DNA of 64,000 nt from positions 138,637 to 202,636 of the forward strand of contig JAOUFJ010000002.1 of NCBI GenBank assembly GCA_029858255.1, read 5' to 3'. Both the position numbers and the translations under genes were made by a program. Under the pieces are notes generated by a model. The model made no database searches and was not told the origin of the DNA. It was given only the letters and a program-made list of their open reading frames with translations. Each line of letters starts with the position of its first letter. The stretch's first letter is position 1. This document shows, piece by piece, positions 5,918-61,945 of the stretch. The stretch is from a candidate division WOR-3 bacterium. GTDB taxonomy: Bacteria; Hydrothermota; Tepidihabitantia; SM23-42.

Positions 5918-7906
5918 TCACGATCGGAAAGTCATCTCAAAAACAGTTCCAGTGTTCTTATGACTTGTTATGCTGATATTACCACCGTGATCCTTGATTA
6001 TTTTTTGTGCTATATACAAGCCCAGACCAGTTCCACTTTTCTTCGTGCTATAATATGGACTGAATACACGCTTTTTTTCTTCTTCGTCCATACCGATGCC
6101 GTTATCAGCGACAATGAGCCTTATTCCTCCTCGAGACCCGGTCAGACTGATATCAATTCTTGGTTTACGGTCCTTCACCGAACCCACCGCGTCGATGGCA
6201 TTCAGCACGATGTTCAAAATAGCCCTTCTAAAATCGTCCGGACTACCAACAAGATTTGTGTCAGTCTCAACGTTCTTCTTCATGTCTATGTTCTGCTCCC
6301 GAATATTGTTCTCTACCAACGGTTCCATATCCCTCAGAATCCCGGCAATGCTGAACGACGTCTTTTCTCTCATCCTTGGTCTTGCAAGCATCAAGAAATC
6401 ATTGACCGTTTTCGTAAGAACCTCTATCTCATGCTTCAGGCTCTCCGTAATGCGCATATAGTCAGCGTCCTCATTGGGAAATTCTTTGGTCAACCTCTGT
6501 ATTCCAATCGACAGACCGTTCAACGGGTTCTTTATCTCATGAGCGAGATTCGCTACCAGATTACCGAGGAAAACAAGCCGCTCTGCCTCTTCCCTCTCCC
6601 TCTCAAACTCCCGTATTTTCGTAACGTCGTGCAGTATGGTAATAGCTCCCGAAATTCTTTGTCGATCATCGAATAGCGGATATGCTGCATATCGGATGTC
6701 CCTGCCAAAAACCCGCTTCTCATCGGCGATCTTCTTGCCCTCCTTCATCACTTTTTCGATATCAAAAGGATCATCAGAGAATACTCTGTCATAGTTGTTA
6801 CCGACGAGGAAATCCTCACCGAAGGCAGACAGTGTGCAGAACATCTCGTTAACTGCACTGATCGCCTTCTTTTGGTCGATCAACAATACACCATCCTCTA
6901 CTGCTCCGAGGGTCTTATGGAACAGATCTTTGATATTTGCGTAAGATTGATAGTTCATCAGCCAGAGAATCAGAAAAAAACTCGCGCCGAATATGATCAC
7001 GAACAGAGCGATAAGCTGCCCTTCTGTCCTCCTAACATGCCGATAATAGCTATCGAGGCTTATCCCAATTCTGAAGATACCAACCATCTCGTCCTCGATG
7101 ATAAACGGGCGGACCAACTCAAGCACATTCTTATCATTGAATTCCTCGATGCGGCTGGTCTCAGTCCTGTTTTCAATAACCTTGACCAGCTCCGGATCAT
7201 CTTCAATCCTACTTATCGTCTCAACATTGGGCGTGGCAAATAATATGCCTTCGGTGTCCTGAAGCACAAGGTAATTCAACATCGGATTTGCCGCCATTTG
7301 ACTTATGATCTTATTAATACCATATTCAGTGCGAAATTCTTTGATACCCTCAGCGGGTAGTTCGATCTGATATATACGTTCGGTAATCACGTAAACAAAC
7401 CGCATGAGTGTTTCGTTCCCAACATCAAAATACTCAAAAGATATCGGCTCAGCTTGTTCGAATATTCTATCGCTGATAAGAAACGGCGTTCCCGAAGCCA
7501 TGATCATTTTTCTGGTGCTCCTACTGAACACCGCGACCGAGCGAAAACCAAAACTCAGTCTCACATTTGCGGTATTTGTTGTTGTCAGGTCGGCATCGAG
7601 CGCACTACAAGCGCCGATCAACTTATTGATGAGTTCATCCTCCAGGCGGGCTTCTGCAAAGATCAAATTCTCCTGGGTCGAGGCAATAACCGAGAGGAAG
7701 GAACGTGCCTGTTCTTTGATCAGATCGAGCATTATCCTTCGGCCACTAATCAAGCCGAGTGTCAAAAAAGTTCCAAGCAGCAATAGAAGTATAATTGCCA
7801 ACAAAAAATAACGCTTCATGCCTTTACCCATTTCCATTTCATAATAACCAAAAGATGCAATGAAGTCAACTAGATGTCTAGTAAGAACGCCTTGCAATTG
7901 CAGCAA
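5918..7906 (-). CDS. Sensor histidine kinase (extracytoplasmic sensor, PAS, HisKA, HATPase_c). The true start is probably the internal 'MKRYFLL' at about 7822.
   Basis: HisKA H-box 'LAHEIKNPLNG'. HATPase 'VADNGIGMDEEE...GTGLGL'. N-terminal TM helices. Confidence 0.75.
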   Translation of the reverse strand: MLQLQGVLTRHLVDFIASFGYYEMEMGKGMKRYFLLAIILLLLLGTFLTLGLISGRRIMLDLIKEQARSFLSVIASTQENLIFAEARLEDELINKLIGACSALDADLTTTNTANVRLSFGFRSVAVFSRSTRKMIMASGTPFLISDRIFEQAEPISFEYFDVGNETLMRFVYVITERIYQIELPAEGIKEFRTEYGINKIISQMAANPMLNYLVLQDTEGILFATPNVETISRIEDDPELVKVIENRTETSRIEEFNDKNVLELVRPFIIEDEMVGIFRIGISLDSYYRHVRRTEGQLIALFVIIFGASFFLILWLMNYQSYANIKDLFHKTLGAVEDGVLLIDQKKAISAVNEMFCTLSAFGEDFLVGNNYDRVFSDDPFDIEKVMKEGKKIADEKRVFGRDIRYAAYPLFDDRQRISGAITILHDVTKIREFEREREEAERLVFLGNLVANLAHEIKNPLNGLSIGIQRLTKEFPNEDADYMRITESLKHEIEVLTKTVNDFLMLARPRMREKTSFSIAGILRDMEPLVENNIREQNIDMKKNVETDTNLVGSPDDFRRAILNIVLNAIDAVGSVKDRKPRIDISLTGSRGGIRLIVADNGIGMDEEEKKRVFSPYYSTKKSGTGLGLYIAQKIIKDHGGNISITSHKNTGTVFEMTFRS

Positions 7907-43653: not shown

Positions 43654-45468
43654 ATGAAAAAAATACTTATTTTGTGCCTGCTGTTGACTGCAGTAGCATA
43701 TAGCAGTCAACGAACGGTTGTAGTCGAGGAATTCACGGCTACGACGTGACCATACTGTCCAGGTACGGCAAGAGGTCTTGCCGAAATATATCCCCGTGCT
43801 TATGATACATTGACGGTAATATCGTACCATGTATGGTCCAGTGACCCGTTCAACACTGCTGAAGCCGAAGCGCGTGAAGCTTACTATGGTATATCCGGAA
43901 CACCTACTACTTGGTTCGATGGGGCAATATCCGAGGTCGGCGGGCTAAACACGGGCACCATGTACCCGTTTTTCCGGCATCACGTGACAACACGCGCAGC
44001 AGTCGATAGTCCGTTGGAGATTACACTGACCTGTGATTACGATTCAACAACGAACCAGGGAAATATCGAAGCAACAGTAACCAACACCACTGGAAGTCCG
44101 GTGAGCGGAAACATACACTTTGCCCTTGTCGAGGACAATATTCCCTACAATTGGGGTGGCGGGATGACCGAACTCGATCAGGTAATGCGCGATATGATCC
44201 CCGATGCAACAGGTGAAGCGGTCACAGTACCAGCCTCGGATACGATCATGCGCTCGAGGGATTTCACCGTCCAGGCGAGCTGGAACGAAGTCAATTGTCG
44301 CATCATCGTCTTTGTCCAGGCGTCGAACCGTCTGATATACCAGGGAGCTGAGATATCCATCATCCCTGAATCTCAGATGGTGTACTATGGCATGACCGTG
44401 ACAGAGCTTACAGGTAATGGTAACGGTTACGGAGAACCAGGCGAAGAGATCGAAGTCACAGCCCATGCCAAGAACATGGGAAGCAGTGTGTACACGCTTC
44501 CGGTTACGGTGGAATGTACCGACCCGAATATCACCGTCACTTCCTCCTACGTCGACACTTTTGAAATAGAGCCGGGTGATGTGGACAATGTCATAACATG
44601 GACTTTTGATATCAGTGCGGCTTGTCCTGATCCGCACCTTGCAGAATTCAATCTTGTCTTCGGTGATGGAAACGAGTCAACGGTGCCTTATCTAGTGACA
44701 ACACAATCAGGATTCAGCGACGACATGGAGTCTGGCGAAGGAGAATGGACACACTCGGGGACTTACGACAATTGGCACCTGACCGAGCACAAGAGCAATT
44801 CTCCAACACATTCCTGGTACTGTGGCGTAGAGAACATCTGGCACTATCTGAACCAAAATGATCTTTCACTCGTGTCCCCATATTTCATTGTATCACAGGA
44901 TAGCATATTATCCTTTTATCACCAATACAACTTAGAAACGAACTGGGATTATACGTACGCGGAGATCGAGAACGGTTCGGGTTGGTGGCAGACCCTCGAC
45001 GAATACAACGGTCTTCAATCGACATGGTCACAGGAAGCGTTTTCTCTTGCCAGTTTACAAGGCCAGACCGTACGCGTGCGATTCAGACTCGTCAGTGATT
45101 ACAGCACCTACGCTGAAGGCTGGTACATTGATGATGTCTGGGTGTCCATGACAGGAATAAACGATCTGAACACTCCGGAGGAACTTAACGCCATTTCCCT
45201 GAGCGTATCTCCTACCCTATTCTCCAGGCAAACGACCATCAGCTTCGGCATCGAACAGAGCGCAGGACAGATAGCGCTCAAGATATACGACGCTGCAGGA
45301 CGCCTGGTAAAAGATTTTTCTTACACTATACCCAATGCCCCATGCGCTATGCAGATTAGTTGGGATGGTACAGACCAAACTAATCGAAAATTACCAAGTG
45401 GTGTCTATTTCATATCCATGCAAGACTCCAATAGCAAAATCGTCGAGAAAGCGGTCCTTCTGAAATAG
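43654..45468 (+). CDS. Exported thioredoxin-fold SELENOPROTEIN with T9SS C-terminal sorting domain. In-frame TGA (43747-43749) read as Sec in a 'T-U-P-Y-C-P' redox motif. Signal peptide at the N-terminus.
   Basis: ATG 43654 'MKKILILCLLLTAVAYSSQ', then 'RTVVVEEFTATT[TGA]PYCPG...YYGISGTPTTWFDG' (Trx beta1, then CxxC position, then cis-Pro loop). Same frame as ORF 43810..45468, which ends in a T9SS CTD ('ALKIYDAAGRLV...GVYFISMQD'). Confidence 0.7.
43766..43783 (+). promoter_or_regulatory. SECIS-like hairpin 17 nt downstream of the UGA of the Trx-like selenoprotein
   Basis: ACGGCAAG-AGGT-CTTGCCG. Loop contains G-U, about 24-27 nt from the UGA. Confidence 0.55.
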
Positions 45469-45518: not shown

Positions 45519-45564
45519 CGTCTGTATCAGTTGACACTTAGCCGCCAATGACTATAATAAAACC

Positions 45565-46599
45565 ATGACTGAAAGCAAGAAGAAAGGCATACTTGCCACG
45601 GTCAAATGCGCGGGCTGAGCTTCGAAACTCTCAGCTGCGCAGTTGGCGCAGGCACTAGCATATTTGCCATCGGTTGAGGATCCTGACCTGCTGGTTGGTA
45701 CGAATACCGCAGACGACGCAGGTGTCTACCGTCTGAACGACGAGCTTGCATTGGTTAAAACGATCGACATTCTCACACCCGTCGTCGAGGACGCGCACAC
45801 TTTCGGCATGATCGCTGCAGCGAACTGCATATCGGACATCTACGCAATGGGCGGTGATCCCAAGTTGGCGCTCAACATCGTTGGGTATCCGGGCATGGGT
45901 GACCCCAAAATCCTCGGTGAAATGCTAAAAGGCGGCAATGACAAGGCGCGGGAAGCCAGCGTCACGACCATCGGCGGTCACACCTTTGCCTCGCCCGAAG
46001 TTATGTATGGTCTTTCAGTTTTAGGCTATATCCATCCCCTGAAAATAATCACGAATGCAGGGGCAAAAACTGACGATGTAATTATCCTGACGAAACCAGT
46101 TGGCGTTGGCACCATAATCCAGGCAATGCTTTTGGATAAAGATGAGGGTATAGACATGAAATCCGTTATAGATTCAATGACCACATTGAATCGAGATGCG
46201 TCAATTGCTATGCGCGCGGCCGGTGCGCACGGTGCGACCGACGTCACGGGATACGGTCTTATCGGTCACCTCGTTGAAATGAGCGAAGCGAGCAAATCAG
46301 GTATCGAAATTTCGCTGCAAAAAATACCAGTACACAAAGGGGCCGTGGAAATTCTGGATCGAGGCATCTTCGAACCAGGTATCACGATGAATCTGAATTC
46401 TTTCAGCAACCGCGTGGATAAGGGCGATAGTGATTCAAATCTTGTCAATTTGATCTTCGGCTCGGAGACTTCTGGCGGGTTGATCATTGCCCTGCCTGAA
46501 GAACGGCTCGAAGTATTCAAACAAAACTACAAAAAAGATTTTGCTGTCATTGGCCGCGTGACAAAGGAAAACGCCGGCCGGGTGACACTGATCCCGTAA
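45565..46599 (+). CDS. selD: Selenide, water dikinase (selenophosphate synthetase), Sec-containing form. In-frame TGA at 45616-45618.
   Basis: ATG 45565 gives 'MTESKKKGILATVKCAG[U]ASKLS...LLVGTNTADDAGVY...AAANCISDIYAMGGDP...DVTGYGLIGHL'. The TGA aligns with Cys17/Sec of SelD 'GAGCGCK'. The ORF-track TTG start at 45643 lies downstream of the catalytic residue. Confidence 0.85.
45619..45651 (+). promoter_or_regulatory. SECIS-like stem-loops immediately 3' of the selD UGA
   Basis: GCTGAG-cttcgaaact-CTCAGC (45614-45635), then CTGCGC-AGTTG-GCGCAG (45635-45651). Loop with G-U about 23-27 nt from the UGA. Confidence 0.55.
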
Positions 46600-46905: not shown

Positions 46906-47145
46906 ATGCCAAAATATCTAATTACCCTTCCAAAAATGCCCAAAGAGCAAATAATCACATCTTGAAAGGCGGTTGTTACCGCTTCCGGAGGAAGCAAAAT
47001 CTGCATGGACAAAGCTTATATAGACGAAGAAAACAGTCAGGCGATCTGCTGTTGGAGTGCTCCTGACCGCAAAAGCCTCGAAGAATTATTCGCCAAGGCG
47101 AATGTGCACGTGGAATCAATAAGGAGCGTCACCGAATACAAATAA
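46906..47145 (+). CDS. Candidate small selenoprotein (79 codons, DUF4242-like C-terminal half), in-frame TGA at 46963-46965
   Basis: GGAGG RBS 5 nt before ATG. 'MPKYLITLPKMPKEQIITS[TGA]KAVVTASGGSKICMDKAYIDEENSQAICCWSAPDRKSLEELFAKANVHVESIRSVTEYK'. Hairpin AGGCGGT-TGTT-ACCGCTT just after the TGA. A terminator follows. Confidence 0.4.
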
Positions 47146-47633: not shown

Positions 47634-47930
47634 ATGGCAAATAAATGGGATACGGTCGTAGGCACCACAGAGTACGCTGAAAATCTCGCGAGGATCAATA
47701 AAATAGCACAGGACAATGGGTACGTACTCAATCCCGATGAAGATAGACTCCGAAAAGTAATCGGCCTCATGACTATGAATAACACTGAATTCGGTAAATA
47801 TTATTGTCCATGTAAGCAAAACCACCCGCTGAATCCCCACAAGGATACCCCTTGTCCCTGTCCTGAAATGAAGAATGAGATCTTCAAAGACGGGCATTGT
47901 TTTTGCAGACTATTTTACAGAAGAACGTAG
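47634..47930 (+). CDS. Ferredoxin:thioredoxin-reductase catalytic-subunit-like protein (FTR-like CPC...CPC...CHC protein)
   Basis: 'YYCPCKQNHPLNPHKDTPCPCPEMKNEIFKDGHCFCRLF'. Strong RBS AAAGGAGG. Confidence 0.6.
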   Translation: MANKWDTVVGTTEYAENLARINKIAQDNGYVLNPDEDRLRKVIGLMTMNNTEFGKYYCPCKQNHPLNPHKDTPCPCPEMKNEIFKDGHCFCRLFYRRT

Positions 47931-47940
47931 GAGAAAGAAA

Positions 47941-49200
47941 ATGAACAATCATGAGCAAATGTGGAAGGAATTAGGTCTTGATGTCGAACTACACAAGGAA
48001 TTGCTCAGATCAATCGACAATACTTTCCAACAAACGGTCGGGAAGCAAAACGAACGCCCTGCTTCCATGGCATACTTCGATCATGTCCTACACGAGTCAC
48101 ACGGCGGCCGAGTTGCTGAACTCATCGAAGCCAGAAAAACAGGTAAAAAATTCATCGGCACATTCTGTATCTATGTACCCGACGAGATCGCCATGGCTGC
48201 TGATGCGATCCCAGTGGCGCTTTGCGGCGGAACACAATTCTCTATCCCGTATGGTGAGAAGATGTTTCCTAGGAACATTTGCCCGCTGATCAAATCAACA
48301 TTTGGACTCGCCCTCTCGAAAACCTGCCCCTACGGTCCGATCAAAGACCTGGGCGTTGGCGAAACTACATGCGATGCAAAAAAGAAGGCCTGGGATGTGG
48401 TAAATTTCCACGTTATGGAAGTCCCCCAGAAGAAGACCGATCTGGATTTCAAATTATGGTATCAGGCCGTTTTGGATTTTAAGAACAGGGTTGAAGAACT
48501 CACGGGGAAGAAGGTGGAAGCAAACAGATTGGCTGAAACAATAAATATCATGAATGACAAACGACGCGCGCTTCAGAAATTGAACGAGTATCGCAAATTG
48601 GACCCGCCGACTATCAGCGGTCTCGATGCGCTTGTCGTCATGCAGGCTGCACTCAACGACGATCCTGCCCGGTTCACTGAACATCTTATAGAACTCAACA
48701 ATGAACTCGATGACCGTGTGCACCGGAGTATTTCGCCATTCAGTAAAGGCGTCAAGCGTATTATGATATCAGGTTGTCCTTCTGTCATGGGTAACTGGAA
48801 AGTGCACTCACTGATAGAAAAATCAGGCGCTGCAATTGTTGTGGACGAAACGTGCACCGGGACGCGCTATTTCAACGATCTGGTCGAAGACGGAGCCCAC
48901 GAAATAGATAAACAACTCCGTGCGTTGGCCGACCGTTACATGAAGATAGATTGCGCCTGCTTCTCTCCGAACAACGAGCGTATGAAGTCGATCGAGAGAA
49001 TTGTCGATGACCGCACCGTCGACGGCGTCGTACAATATATTCTTCAATACTGTCACGGTTACAATGTTGAAGCAATAAGGGTCGCCGGCATTCTGAGCAA
49101 GAAAAGCATCCCCAATATCAAAATCGAAACCGATTACGCTGAAGAAGACATGGGACAACTCCGCACGCGTATCGACGCTTTTCTCGAGCAACTAAGTTAA
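47941..49200 (+). CDS. 2-hydroxyacyl-CoA dehydratase / benzoyl-CoA reductase BcrBC-like (HgdAB family, double-cubane-type) protein. Start moved to ATG 47941 after the FTR-like stop.
   Basis: Family-typical C-terminus '...GQLRTRIDAFLEQL'. Cys-rich N-terminal part. Confidence 0.65.
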   Translation: MNNHEQMWKELGLDVELHKELLRSIDNTFQQTVGKQNERPASMAYFDHVLHESHGGRVAELIEARKTGKKFIGTFCIYVPDEIAMAADAIPVALCGGTQFSIPYGEKMFPRNICPLIKSTFGLALSKTCPYGPIKDLGVGETTCDAKKKAWDVVNFHVMEVPQKKTDLDFKLWYQAVLDFKNRVEELTGKKVEANRLAETINIMNDKRRALQKLNEYRKLDPPTISGLDALVVMQAALNDDPARFTEHLIELNNELDDRVHRSISPFSKGVKRIMISGCPSVMGNWKVHSLIEKSGAAIVVDETCTGTRYFNDLVEDGAHEIDKQLRALADRYMKIDCACFSPNNERMKSIERIVDDRTVDGVVQYILQYCHGYNVEAIRVAGILSKKSIPNIKIETDYAEEDMGQLRTRIDAFLEQLS

Positions 49201-56657: not shown

Positions 56658-58058
56658 GTGAAGGATGCCATGAAAACTAAAGAAATACTGAGAAATATTC
56701 CATCGGTGGATAAAATCCTTAACTGGGATGAAATAAAGGAATCTCTCAAAATCCTCAACCAAGACCATATAACCAGGATCATACGCGATAACGTAGAAAA
56801 CTACCGAAAACTTCTGATTGCCGGTGAAAAAATCGACGATAGTCGTTTGAAAAAAGCAATCTTAGCCGATATCCAGGATCTTATCACTCCCTATTTCTGC
56901 TATGCGGTCAATGCGCTCGGTATTGTTTTGCATACGGGATTGGGCCGTGCACCGTTTAACAAACACATTGCAGAAGTCATCCATGATATGTCCATGGGCT
57001 ATTCACGGTTGCAAATCGATGATGATGGAAAGCGGGCTGACCGCTACAAGAAGATCAATCGCTTGCTTCAGATCTTAACCGGGGCCGAAGCCGGGATCAT
57101 CGTCAACAACAACGCTGCCGCAACAATGCTCATCCTCAGTGCAATGGCAAAAGGCAAAGAGGTAATCGTGTCAAGGGGTCAACTCATTGAGATCGGTGGA
57201 GCATATCGTATTCCAGACATAATGGCGCAGAGCGGTGCGATAATGCACGAAATAGGCACAACCAATAGAACACATCTTAAGGACTATACAGGAGCAATAA
57301 ATGAGAACACAGGTGCGATACTGCGCGTGCACCAGTCAAACTACCGTATTATTGGCTTCACCAAAGAAGTCCCATTGGATGAGCTTGTCGAACTGGGGAG
57401 AAAACACAATATCCCGGTTATCGATGACCTGGGAAGCGGAGCGCTGATCGATTTTGCCGCATATGGACTGCCCAAAGAACCTATGGTACAAGAGAGCATC
57501 GCCACGGGAGCTGACGTAGTCTGTTTCAGCGGCGATAAACTGATCGGCGGACCACAATGCGGAATTATTATCGGTAAGAGGCAACATATAGAGTTAATAA
57601 AGAAAAACCCGCTTACCCGGGCGCTGAGATGCGATAAACTAACTAATGCTGCATTAGAAGCCACGCTTCAAATGTTTCTGCTCAAAGAGGAAGATTTAGT
57701 ATTAAATCACGCCGTTTTGGGCATTTTACTTAAACCATTAGATGAAATAAAATCTCGCGCGAAGCGTTGTGCGAGAGGTCTGAAAGCTGCATTTGGCAGC
57801 ATCCTCGAGGTATCTGTACGCTCGGGCGTCAGTGAGATTGGCGGAGGTTCACTCAGTACAGAACAGCTGCCCACCTATCTGGTGGCTATCAAATCACAAG
57901 ATATCGCGGCAAGCGATCTGGCACATGCCCTGCGGCGATACCAAACACCGGTTTTTACCAGGGTTGCCGAAGACAGTGTTCTCCTCGACTTCCGCACCGT
58001 TGTGAAGGGCGAGGAAAAGATAATACTTGAAGCCTTCAAGACAGTCCTCAAAATCTGA
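56658..58058 (+). CDS. selA: L-seryl-tRNA(Sec) selenium transferase
   Basis: 'IIVNNNAAATMLILSAMAKGKEVIVSRGQLIEIGGAYRIPD...HEIGTTNRTH...FSGDKLIGGPQCGII' aligns with SelA, including the PLP-lysine region. Confidence 0.9.
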   Translation: MKDAMKTKEILRNIPSVDKILNWDEIKESLKILNQDHITRIIRDNVENYRKLLIAGEKIDDSRLKKAILADIQDLITPYFCYAVNALGIVLHTGLGRAPFNKHIAEVIHDMSMGYSRLQIDDDGKRADRYKKINRLLQILTGAEAGIIVNNNAAATMLILSAMAKGKEVIVSRGQLIEIGGAYRIPDIMAQSGAIMHEIGTTNRTHLKDYTGAINENTGAILRVHQSNYRIIGFTKEVPLDELVELGRKHNIPVIDDLGSGALIDFAAYGLPKEPMVQESIATGADVVCFSGDKLIGGPQCGIIIGKRQHIELIKKNPLTRALRCDKLTNAALEATLQMFLLKEEDLVLNHAVLGILLKPLDEIKSRAKRCARGLKAAFGSILEVSVRSGVSEIGGGSLSTEQLPTYLVAIKSQDIAASDLAHALRRYQTPVFTRVAEDSVLLDFRTVVKGEEKIILEAFKTVLKI

Positions 58059-58191: not shown

Positions 58192-60114
58192 GTGATGGAT
58201 ACGAGAAAGAAACACATCGTTATCGGTACCGCGGGACACATTGATCACGGAAAGAGCGCTTTGATAAAAGCACTCACCGGTGTCGACCCGGACCGGCTCA
58301 AGGAGGAGAAAGAGCGAGGTATGACCACAGACCTCGGCTTTGTTTTTTACAGCGCCGATGTAACTATCATCGACGTACCGGGTCATGAAAAATTCGTTCG
58401 GCATATGGTAGCCGGAGCATCGACTATTGACTTCGTGATCTTCGTGGTCGCCGCTGACGATGGAGTAATGCCACAAACGCACGAACACCTTGAGATTCTT
58501 AAACTACTCGGAATAAAAAAGGGTATCGTTGTAATTACAAAGAAAGACCTTGTTGAGAAAGACATGCTGGAAGTAGTAATAGACGATGTGAAGCGTGCCC
58601 TGACTAATTCTTTTCTGGAGAATGCGCCGATCATTAAGGTTTCAAATATCACCAAAGACGGTATCGAAGAACTCAGGAAATGCCTCGACGAGCTGATCAC
58701 TCAGATCGAGCCAAAAACCGACCGTGGTATATTCAGGATGCCTATTGACCGCCGGTTCGTGATAAAAGGATTTGGCACCGTGGTTGCGGGCACGGTTTTA
58801 TCAGGCAAAGTCAAAATAGGGGATACTGTCGAGCTACTACCCGAGAAAAAAAGTGTCAAAGTCAGGGGGATCGAAGTCCATAATGAAAAAGTAGATACCG
58901 TGGGCACTGGATTCCGCGCAGCCATCAACCTTGTAGGCGCTGACAAAGATGAGATCGACCGCGGTGATGTGCTCGCCCAGCCCGGTTTTTATGAACCATC
59001 GGAATACCTGAATGCATCTTTATACCTATTGTCTTCCGCTGGCAAGCCACTGAAGAATTTCAGCAGATTGCGGATACACGTCGGGACAAATGAAATATTC
59101 GGCCGCGTTGTGTTACTCGATAAAAAAACACTCGGACCAGGGCAAAAAGCAATGGTTCAGTTCAGATTGGAATCCCCGGCTGTCTGCGACATCAACGATA
59201 ATTACGTAATAAGATCCTATTCGCCACAAATGACCATTGGTGGCGGCCTCATAATCGAGCCCAAAGCGACAAAAGCAAAGGGGTTTGATGAGGAACTGAT
59301 CAGCCATTTGCAGCGCATGGAAGTCGGTGAACCCGTTGTGATCGTAGAAGAGGATCTATTGGCGAATTTCGATCTTCCAAGGAAACCCGAGGAAATCGCT
59401 CATGATGTTAACCTCCCCCTCGCAGAGACGAAAAACCTCATAGAAAATCTGATACAGCAGGGAAAGATAATATGTCTTGACGAAAAACGCGGGTTTTACT
59501 ATCACCAGAAGAACCATGAAAAACTGAAGGCGCAAATCGTCGAAAATCTTGGCACCTACCACAAGGCGAATCCGACCGGCGTCGGGCTTTCCGCCCTTGA
59601 ACTATTGAAGAATATCAGCCGCGGTCTCGATAAAGTTCTCCTGGACCGTACACTCGCAAAAATGGAAAAGGAGAAAATCGTACGCCTCACGCCAGACGGA
59701 AAGATCAATCTATTCGAGCACAAAGTAGTGGTCGACAAAGACCTCGATGCCACGATCAAAAAAATCGAGCAGCTCTTCATTGAAGGCGGCTATAAACCGC
59801 CCTCTTACCAGGATGTGGTTACCCGCAACCTAGATCCTGAGAACGTCGTAAAGAAAGCGTACCGTTATATGCTCGATACCGGGCTCCTGGTAAATGCCGG
59901 CGAGGGCATTGTCTTGCACCAGAATTATGTTAAAGCAGCAGAGCAAAAACTCATCGAATTCTTGAAGACAAATAAGGAAATAAGAGTCTCCCAGTTCCGC
60001 GACCTGCTCGATGCAAGCCGCAAGTTTGTCCTGCCGCTTCTGATATATTTCGACACGCGCGGTGTCACGATCAAACGAGGCGACGTAAGGGTGTTGGGAC
60101 AAAAATACCGCTAA
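58192..60114 (+). CDS. selB: Selenocysteine-specific elongation factor
   Basis: G-domain 'GTAGHIDHGKSAL', 'DVPGHEKF', 'TKKD'. ~640 aa with C-terminal winged-helix extension. Sits next to selA. Confidence 0.9.
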   Translation: MMDTRKKHIVIGTAGHIDHGKSALIKALTGVDPDRLKEEKERGMTTDLGFVFYSADVTIIDVPGHEKFVRHMVAGASTIDFVIFVVAADDGVMPQTHEHLEILKLLGIKKGIVVITKKDLVEKDMLEVVIDDVKRALTNSFLENAPIIKVSNITKDGIEELRKCLDELITQIEPKTDRGIFRMPIDRRFVIKGFGTVVAGTVLSGKVKIGDTVELLPEKKSVKVRGIEVHNEKVDTVGTGFRAAINLVGADKDEIDRGDVLAQPGFYEPSEYLNASLYLLSSAGKPLKNFSRLRIHVGTNEIFGRVVLLDKKTLGPGQKAMVQFRLESPAVCDINDNYVIRSYSPQMTIGGGLIIEPKATKAKGFDEELISHLQRMEVGEPVVIVEEDLLANFDLPRKPEEIAHDVNLPLAETKNLIENLIQQGKIICLDEKRGFYYHQKNHEKLKAQIVENLGTYHKANPTGVGLSALELLKNISRGLDKVLLDRTLAKMEKEKIVRLTPDGKINLFEHKVVVDKDLDATIKKIEQLFIEGGYKPPSYQDVVTRNLDPENVVKKAYRYMLDTGLLVNAGEGIVLHQNYVKAAEQKLIEFLKTNKEIRVSQFRDLLDASRKFVLPLLIYFDTRGVTIKRGDVRVLGQKYR

Positions 60115-61851: not shown

Positions 61852-61945
61852 TGGCGGAGGCGTGTAGGAATCGAACCTACCGTCCCCCTTTCGAAGGACA
61901 TCCGGGTTTGAAGCCCGTCAGGCACACCAGCACCCATCCGCCTCC
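61852..61945 (-). tRNA. selC: tRNA-Sec (anticodon UCA), about 94 nt, CCA encoded
   Basis: Minus strand GGAGGCGG-A-TGGGTGCTGGTGTGCC-TGA-CGGG-CTTCAAA-CCCG-...-GTCC-TTCGAAAGG-GGAC-GG-TAGG-TTCGATT-CCTA-CA-CGCCTCC-G-CCA. Long acceptor, long variable arm, anticodon TCA. Confidence 0.85.

Follow-up and report, generated by a model that had tools for sequence, protein, structure and literature searches.

The selD gene of a candidate division WOR-3 bacterium very probably encodes a selenophosphate synthetase that itself contains selenocysteine (Sec). The gene is located on the plus strand at 45565..46599 of a 64,000 nt stretch of genomic DNA, which is called the window in the following. The probability that selD encodes such a Sec-containing enzyme, and that UGA codon 18 (45616..45618) is decoded with the help of a SECIS hairpin at 45635-45651, is estimated to be about 0.93.

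The selD Reading Frame and the Identity of the Protein

The selD reading frame extends from ATG 45565 to the stop codon TAA 46597-46599, comprises 344 codons including Sec18, and contains a single in-frame TGA, namely codon 18 (45616-45618). Further upstream the frame is closed by an in-frame TGA at 45532-45534, and ATG 45565 is the sole start codon between that stop and the internal TGA. The sequence around the codon reads MTESKKKGILATVKCAG*ASKLS, with the motif VKCAG-U-ASK. A preliminary description of this DNA had proposed that the extension of the frame to ATG 45565 brings the internal TGA to the position of Cys17, and the alignment to Escherichia coli SelD confirmed this, together with the context VKCAG*ASKLS.

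With Cys written for the TGA, the protein reached 316.3 bits with the selenophosphate synthetase profile TIGR00476, the cutoff of which is 125. Residues 12-313 were matched to profile positions 5-309 of 311, and the match begins upstream of the TGA and spans it. The two domains of the PurM-like fold were also recovered, i.e., AIRS (PF00586, 80 bits) and AIRS_C (PF02769, 60 bits). Full-length alignments were obtained with the structures of SelD from E. coli (3u0o, E = 4e-48) and Aquifex aeolicus (2yye/2zod, E = 3e-53). The segment AG-U-ASK (residues 16-21) aligns with AG-C-GCK of the E. coli protein (chain positions 15-20) and with SSG-C-AAK of the A. aeolicus structure 2yye, and thus Sec18 and Lys21 correspond to Cys17 and Lys20 of the glycine-rich loop in the numbering of E. 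coli SelD. While Sec is predicted at this position of the WOR-3 protein, Cys is found in E. coli SelD and also in the solved A. aeolicus chain, where it presumably replaces a native Sec. The Asp-containing motifs of the ATP site are also conserved in the alignments with the PDB entries (DDAGVY, TIDILTPVVED, ISDIYAMGG, and TDVTGYGL). The predicted activity of the protein is the selenide- and ATP-dependent synthesis of selenophosphate.

Conservation of the UGA Codon in SelD Loci

SelD loci were taken from genome and metagenome collections (160 in total), and the DNA upstream of each match was read. Enough upstream DNA was available for 157 sequences, the window included, and on these the codon count rests. 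At the aligned position TGA is present in 108 loci, TGT in 35, and TGC in 13, while one sequence has a variant Cys motif. The loci with at least 58% identity to the selD gene of the window are mostly from metagenome-assembled genomes of candidate division WOR-3, and they include three complete chromosomes at 86-87% identity. All 21 of them have TGA at the aligned codon and a conserved peptide upstream of it, e.g., KKKGILATVKCAG. The preliminary description had named as a counterexample close relatives that start downstream of this region and have a Cys-containing loop elsewhere; none of the 21 is of this kind. More distantly related SelDs carry TGT or TGC at exactly the codon in question. The pairing of Sec with Cys and the conservation of the protein across the TGA are the standard bioinformatic signature of selenoproteins, and selD therefore qualifies as a selenoprotein gene.

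Public annotation treats this gene differently. The mechanical ORF call starts at TTG 45643 and yields a protein of 318 amino acids, the entries P0001 and P0002, which are public calls for the identical sequence, have the same length, and nearly all database calls for relatives have 318 amino acids or fewer. Taken at face value, the TGA would be a genuine stop codon and translation of selD would start at the TTG. However, a SelD of 318 amino acids would lack the catalytic loop with the equivalents of Cys17 and Lys20, a consequence that had already been pointed out in the preliminary description and that holds for the mechanical and the public calls alike. In addition, protein-level conservation in all close relatives extends over the 17 codons in front of the TGA, the match to the family profile spans the TGA, a Cys codon is present at exactly this position in 48 loci, and the promoter described below abuts ATG 45565, not TTG 45643. 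The uniform length of the database calls is readily explained by gene finders that stop at a TGA. Termination at codon 18 is therefore regarded as very improbable, and the TGA is treated as a Sec codon in the following.

Two further observations were made in the set of loci. In 15 Sec-type SelD loci the frame upstream of the loop is open; this extends over at least 32 codons with no start codon in view in L008, L009, L010, L086, L087, L089, and L091, and the same open upstream frame is found in L011, L014, L025, L030, L101, L103, L106, and L107. These open frames suggest N-terminal fusions of the respective SelDs, and NADH-dehydrogenase-like fusions to SelD have been described (PMC4561486). 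The second observation concerns the contig Ga0568894_0000118 (L161), which contains two selD genes about 5 kb apart, a Sec-type gene from position 769 (TGA 808-810) and a Cys-type gene at 6001-7023. The Cys-type copy (P0057, with the codon TGC) is located at a position that is syntenic with selD of the window, and it has retained the hairpin CUGCGC-AGUUA-GCGCAG. The retained hairpin points to a recent Sec-to-Cys conversion, i.e., a change from TGA to TGC. It had been considered to use P0057 as a Cys-type negative control that lacks a hairpin, and this was rejected for the same reason. Over approximately 95 residues at the C-terminus the two copies hardly differ, an indication of either gene conversion or a chimeric assembly.

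A Hairpin Downstream of the UGA Codon Is Under Selection

The hairpin CUGCGC-AGUUG-GCGCAG is located at 45635..45651 on the plus strand, with a loop that begins 22 nt downstream of the UGA. Folded alone, it has a free energy of -9.1 kcal/mol. The folding energy of a 50 nt segment was compared with that of shuffled sequences and was not unusual for the local composition (z = -0.04). As the energy was uninformative, a synonymous-site test and a covariation test were used instead, and the case for the hairpin rests on these two tests.

For the synonymous-site test a codon alignment of selD from 20 relatives was used, which contains 66 conserved four-fold-degenerate columns. The stem (GCGC/GCGC) is made up of two Ala GCG codons, and their third-position entropies, 0.0 and 0.29 bits, are the lowest of all 66 columns. 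The next-lowest value is 0.99 bits, and most columns have 1.5-2.0 bits. GCG accounts for only 26% of the Ala codons in these selD genes. The hairpin overlaps the conserved peptide AAQLAQA, and thus part of its conservation is at the protein level, an overlap that the synonymous-site test addresses. In the 32 sequences with this SECIS type, 88% of the cells pair. The covariation score was 0.185, compared to 0.046 in shuffled alignments (none of 500 reached the observed value) and far lower values in slid-partner controls, with the restriction that the core stem is near-invariant and that the signal comes only from the two outer pairs (CG/GC/AU and UA/AU/GU/GC) among mutually related sequences. 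In the relative L085 the stem consists of other bases, yet a hairpin is kept in a shifted register, and its loop also begins with AGUU. The consensus fold of the relatives includes the hairpin 45635-45651. When all loci were compared, the hairpins 10-37 nt past the codon were better in Sec-type than in Cys-type loci (Mann-Whitney p = 3e-10), and several clade-specific SECIS types were visible. At 45635-45651 an RNA structure is under selection beyond the protein code.

Bacterial SECIS elements have an apical loop about 16-37 nt after the UGA and a G among the first loop bases, according to the criteria of bSECISearch. The stem-loop of selD lies within the ORF and starts its AGUUG loop 22 nt past the UGA, in agreement with criteria of this type. 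It is therefore predicted to be a SECIS element, which would bind SelB and allow read-through of the UGA. Bacterial SECIS elements are not represented by any Rfam family; no such family was matched in a search, whether with the gathering threshold or with E <= 1 as the limit.

The preliminary description had listed two consecutive hairpins after the UGA. Its second one, with the AGUUG loop, is the element described here, while the first (GAG/CUC) consists of only 3 bp, overlaps with the UGA, and lacks conservation among the relatives, and it was thus dropped from the element. An alternative long hairpin at 45601-45647 was also tried, in which codons 15-18 (UGCGCGGGCUGAG) pair with the 5' arm of the SECIS hairpin (141 nt fold, z = -2.1). 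The third position of the upstream Ala codon varies freely, which indicates that this long hairpin is not under selection, and it is probably incidental.

The selection on the RNA also bears on the question of whether selD is a functional gene. A single in-frame stop near the 5' end resembles a nonsense mutation, and it could be envisioned that a formerly Cys-type selD has become a pseudogene, or that the stop is an assembly error. However, the same TGA is present in 107 other independent loci, the protein is conserved on both sides of it, and RNA-level selection acts just downstream. Relaxed selection was not observed in the relatives either, in which 60-87% identity is kept over the full length of selD. 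Gene decay or an assembly error is thus exceedingly improbable, in contrast to a functional selD with an internal Sec codon.

The Window Contains a Complete Set of Sec Machinery Genes

All four genes of the bacterial Sec pathway, i.e., selA, selB, selC, and selD, are present in the window, and they lie within 16.4 kb. The presence of selA and selB near selD had been part of the preliminary description, and both assignments were borne out by profile scores. The selA gene (56658..58058, plus strand) encodes the L-seryl-tRNA(Sec) selenium transferase (TIGR00474, 545 bits; PF03841 and Se-cys_synth_N). The selB gene (58192..60114, plus strand) encodes the Sec-specific elongation factor (TIGR00475, 352 bits), which includes the C-terminal SECIS-binding winged-helix domain; residues 589-635 match SelB-wing_3 (PF09107). 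The tRNA-Sec gene selC is located at 61852..61945 on the minus strand. The tRNA has the anticodon UCA, a long variable arm, G73, and an encoded CCA end, and its eighth acceptor pair is a G-A mismatch. ARAGORN reported tRNA-SeC with the anticodon tca, and the Rfam model RF01852 matched over its full length (positions 1-91) with 75 bits, well above its gathering score of 47. A tRNA that does not score as tRNA-Sec would have spoken against the preliminary description; in fact, the identity and the anticodon given there were corroborated, and only the strand had to be corrected to minus. Between selD and the selA-selB pair lie about 10 kb with genes for corrinoid methyltransferases and double-cubane-cluster proteins.

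A reassignment of TGA to a standard amino acid (Trp or Gly) in the WOR-3 bacterium was considered as an alternative. Several database entries seem to point in this direction, because they contain a full-length SelD with W at the site (P0059, P0070, P0079), and the same is true for homologs of the small ORF downstream of selD (P0121, P0125-P0129). However, TGA terminates 18 of the 39 long ORFs of the window, including selA, and is the commonest ordinary stop codon. Therefore, the genetic code is not reassigned. The presence of the complete selA/selB/tRNA-Sec set also argues against reassignment, as does the selected hairpin after the codon, and the site pairs with Cys in homologs, not with Trp or Gly. 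The W residues stem from gene finders that read TGA as a sense codon. A reassigned TGA is thus extremely unlikely, and decoding as Sec is much preferred.

A Predicted selD Promoter Abuts the Start Codon

A sigma-70-type promoter with the structure TTGACA-16 nt-TATAAT is present at 45531..45558 on the plus strand and matches the consensus at 12 of 12 positions. It comes after the terminator of the gene that precedes selD. A gap of 6 nt separates the -10 hexamer from ATG 45565, and selD has no Shine-Dalgarno sequence. The same hexamers were found 5-6 nt before the ATG in seven relatives (L001, L003, L004, L081, L082, L083, L085), in which they are separated by unrelated spacers of 16 or 17 nt. 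The more distant relatives L005, L084, and L088 contain the Shine-Dalgarno sequence GGAGGTG instead. The position of the promoter supports ATG 45565 as the predicted start codon. The consensus matches also suggest that the selD mRNA is leaderless, and for selD of the whole clade a leaderless arrangement is a tentative possibility.

Both Genes Flanking selD Are Predicted Selenoprotein Genes

The preliminary description had counted at least two and possibly three selenoprotein genes in this region. The present analysis arrives at three, which are consecutive and on the same strand: in both genes that flank selD an in-frame TGA is conserved, homologs with Cys at the aligned position exist, and a SECIS-like hairpin follows the codon, which identifies both as predicted selenoprotein genes. 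In all three cases a G-containing loop starts 21-23 nt after the UGA. This common architecture would be expected if a single SelB reads all three elements.

The upstream gene (43654..45468, plus strand; ATG 43654 to TAG 45468) encodes an Omp28-like protein that carries a signal peptide and, at its C-terminus, a T9SS sorting domain. Its Sec codon is TGA 43747-43749 within the motif T-U-P-Y-C (UxxC), and the SECIS-like hairpin CGGCAAG-AGGU-CUUGCCG is found at 43766-43783 on the plus strand, with a loop that starts 23 nt after the UGA. L003 and L004 share the TGA, and the paralogs in L161 have Cys at this position. With the Pfam model Omp28 the protein scored 66 bits, compared to a threshold of 34.9. 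It also resembles NF045500, the family of Omp28-related selenoproteins, with 44.4 bits downstream of the TGA and 28.7 bits in the N-terminal part; with a cutoff of 200, it is a relative of this family and falls short of membership. In the mechanical ORF, which begins at TTG 43810, the signal peptide and the Sec residue are lost. The product is predicted to be a secreted or outer-membrane protein, and T-U-P-Y-C would be its redox motif.

The downstream gene (46906..47145, plus strand; ATG 46906, TAA 47143-47145) encodes a small SCO4226-like protein of 79 amino acids with a predicted Sec at residue 20 (TGA 46963-46965). The gene possesses a Shine-Dalgarno sequence of its own as well as a site resembling a promoter. 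The SECIS-like hairpin GCUUCC-GGA-GGAAGC is located at 46981-46995 on the plus strand, and its loop starts 21 nt after the UGA. Across relatives the hairpin has the form GCUUCC-GGN-GGAAGC and includes a compensatory change from U-A to C-G. Nine related loci have conserved the TGA together with the peptide segments on both sides of it, and in an exhaustive profile search Cys was found at the aligned position in the homologs P0167, P0170, P0171, and P0177. The protein also contains an invariant pair of cysteines (Cys48-Cys49). Its score with PF14026 (SCO4226-like) was 26 bits and thus slightly below the gathering threshold of 28.5, while relatives carry precomputed hits to this family. A sequence search of the PDB with the small protein yielded nothing relevant. 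In a fold search, the AlphaFold model of the small protein (pLDDT 89.9) matched the structure of SCO4226 (PDB 4oi6) with a TM score of 0.80. SCO4226 is a nickel-binding protein (PMC4186839). SCO4226 itself is not a selenoprotein, and in our literature search no paper was found that links the SCO4226-like family to selenocysteine. The small gene adjoins selD in 11 of the 12 contexts seen. It is conceivable, albeit rather doubtful at present, that it represents an undescribed selD-linked family of selenoproteins, the members of which might handle selenium, e.g., as a carrier of selenide or of a metal.

The window was also scanned for further in-frame TGAs. The scan covered the long read-through ORFs, and of the short genes those at 43.5-47.9 kb were covered exhaustively; the other candidates in the long ORFs were antisense to long ORFs or represented junctions of adjacent genes. 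The Pfam annotation of the region at 0.7-24 kb revealed housekeeping genes only and no further selenium-related genes.

A Putative Self-Dependent Synthesis of SelD

The results are compatible with the following mechanism. Transcription from the promoter at 45531-45558 would yield an mRNA that is probably leaderless and is translated from AUG 45565. The hairpin at 45635-45651 would recruit SelB-GTP-Sec-tRNA(Sec), and Sec would be inserted at UGA codon 18 instead of termination. In the enzyme, Sec18 and Lys21 in the mobile N-terminal glycine-rich loop would help to make selenophosphate from selenide and ATP. SelA would use the selenophosphate to convert Ser-tRNA(Sec) to Sec-tRNA(Sec). The synthesis of SelD would thus need the product of SelD itself, a positive feedback loop that we infer, like the Sec insertion at codon 18, from the established bacterial pathway.

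Sec-containing SelDs occur in various bacteria, e.g., in Haemophilus influenzae, in Clostridia, and in Deltaproteobacteria. Together with FdhA, SelD has been reported to be the most widespread bacterial selenoprotein (PMC1794560). It has been described as a selenoprotein in many organisms (PMC12013277), and its Sec and Cys forms as well as its fusions have been mapped across life (PMC4561486). The WOR-3 gene shares with the known Sec-type SelDs the membership in the same family, the UGA at the equivalent of Cys17, the hairpin within the ORF just downstream, and the predicted dependence on its own product. Apart from the WOR-3 lineage, it differs from them in the loop C-A-G-U-A-S-K, which has a Cys three residues before Sec and none two residues after it, in the SECIS type of the clade (GCGC-AGUUR-GCGC), and in the promoter that abuts the start codon. 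The Sec-type selD described here is therefore an ordinary case of a well-known kind, and the potential for novelty is confined to the small SCO4226-like selenoprotein and the leaderless arrangement.

A consensus model of bacterial SECIS elements has been described for bSECISearch (PMC12013277). Like this model and the SECIS element of E. coli fdhF, the selD hairpin forms a stem-loop inside the ORF, immediately on the 3' side of the UGA, with a loop about 20 nt on and G/U at the loop start (AGUUG). However, it has no sequence similarity to the fdhF element, and its stem is short, with 4-6 bp and an optional bulged A. Clustering of Sec machinery genes with a Sec-type selD also has a precedent, the selDABC cluster of Eubacterium acidaminophilum (Gursinsky et al. 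2000, cited in PMC12013277). The WOR-3 arrangement differs in that selD lies about 10 kb from selA-selB and selC is on the opposite strand.

Annotation and Neighboring Genes

In public databases SelD of this clade is called with at most 318 amino acids (P0001-P0056 and others), also in records named "selenide, water dikinase SelD". For the small selenoprotein the databases give a fragment of 46-51 amino acids (P0130-P0165), and both proteins are sometimes called in full length with W at the Sec position. As the misannotation affects both neighboring selenoprotein genes as well, the selenoproteomes of WOR-3 bacteria are under-counted. The practical value of the present results thus lies in the correction of the annotation for a candidate phylum. 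They leave the known picture of selenocysteine decoding unchanged, and they add to it a well-supported case of a SelD that would require its own product, in a candidate phylum that has been little studied, and a clade-specific SECIS type with evidence from synonymous sites.

A gene for a protein similar to the catalytic subunit of ferredoxin-thioredoxin reductase (PF02943) is located at 47634-47930 on the plus strand. It weakly resembles NF041072, the FtrB family double-selenoprotein, but has Cys at the respective positions (CPC...CPC...HCFC). It is followed by genes for a double-cubane-cluster protein, two activase ATPases, corrinoid (B12-binding) proteins, and URO-D-type methyltransferases, and the whole group extends from 47.6 to 56.6 kb. 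A gene for a BcrAD/BadFG-type ATPase lacks the first approximately 63 positions of the family profile when its ORF is read from ATG 49261. The stop codon of the gene in front of it (49198-49200) is immediately followed by the conserved motif GGTIITAGIDIGS, for which no ATG, GTG, or TTG is available. The gene may therefore use a non-canonical start codon, e.g., ATT or ATA.
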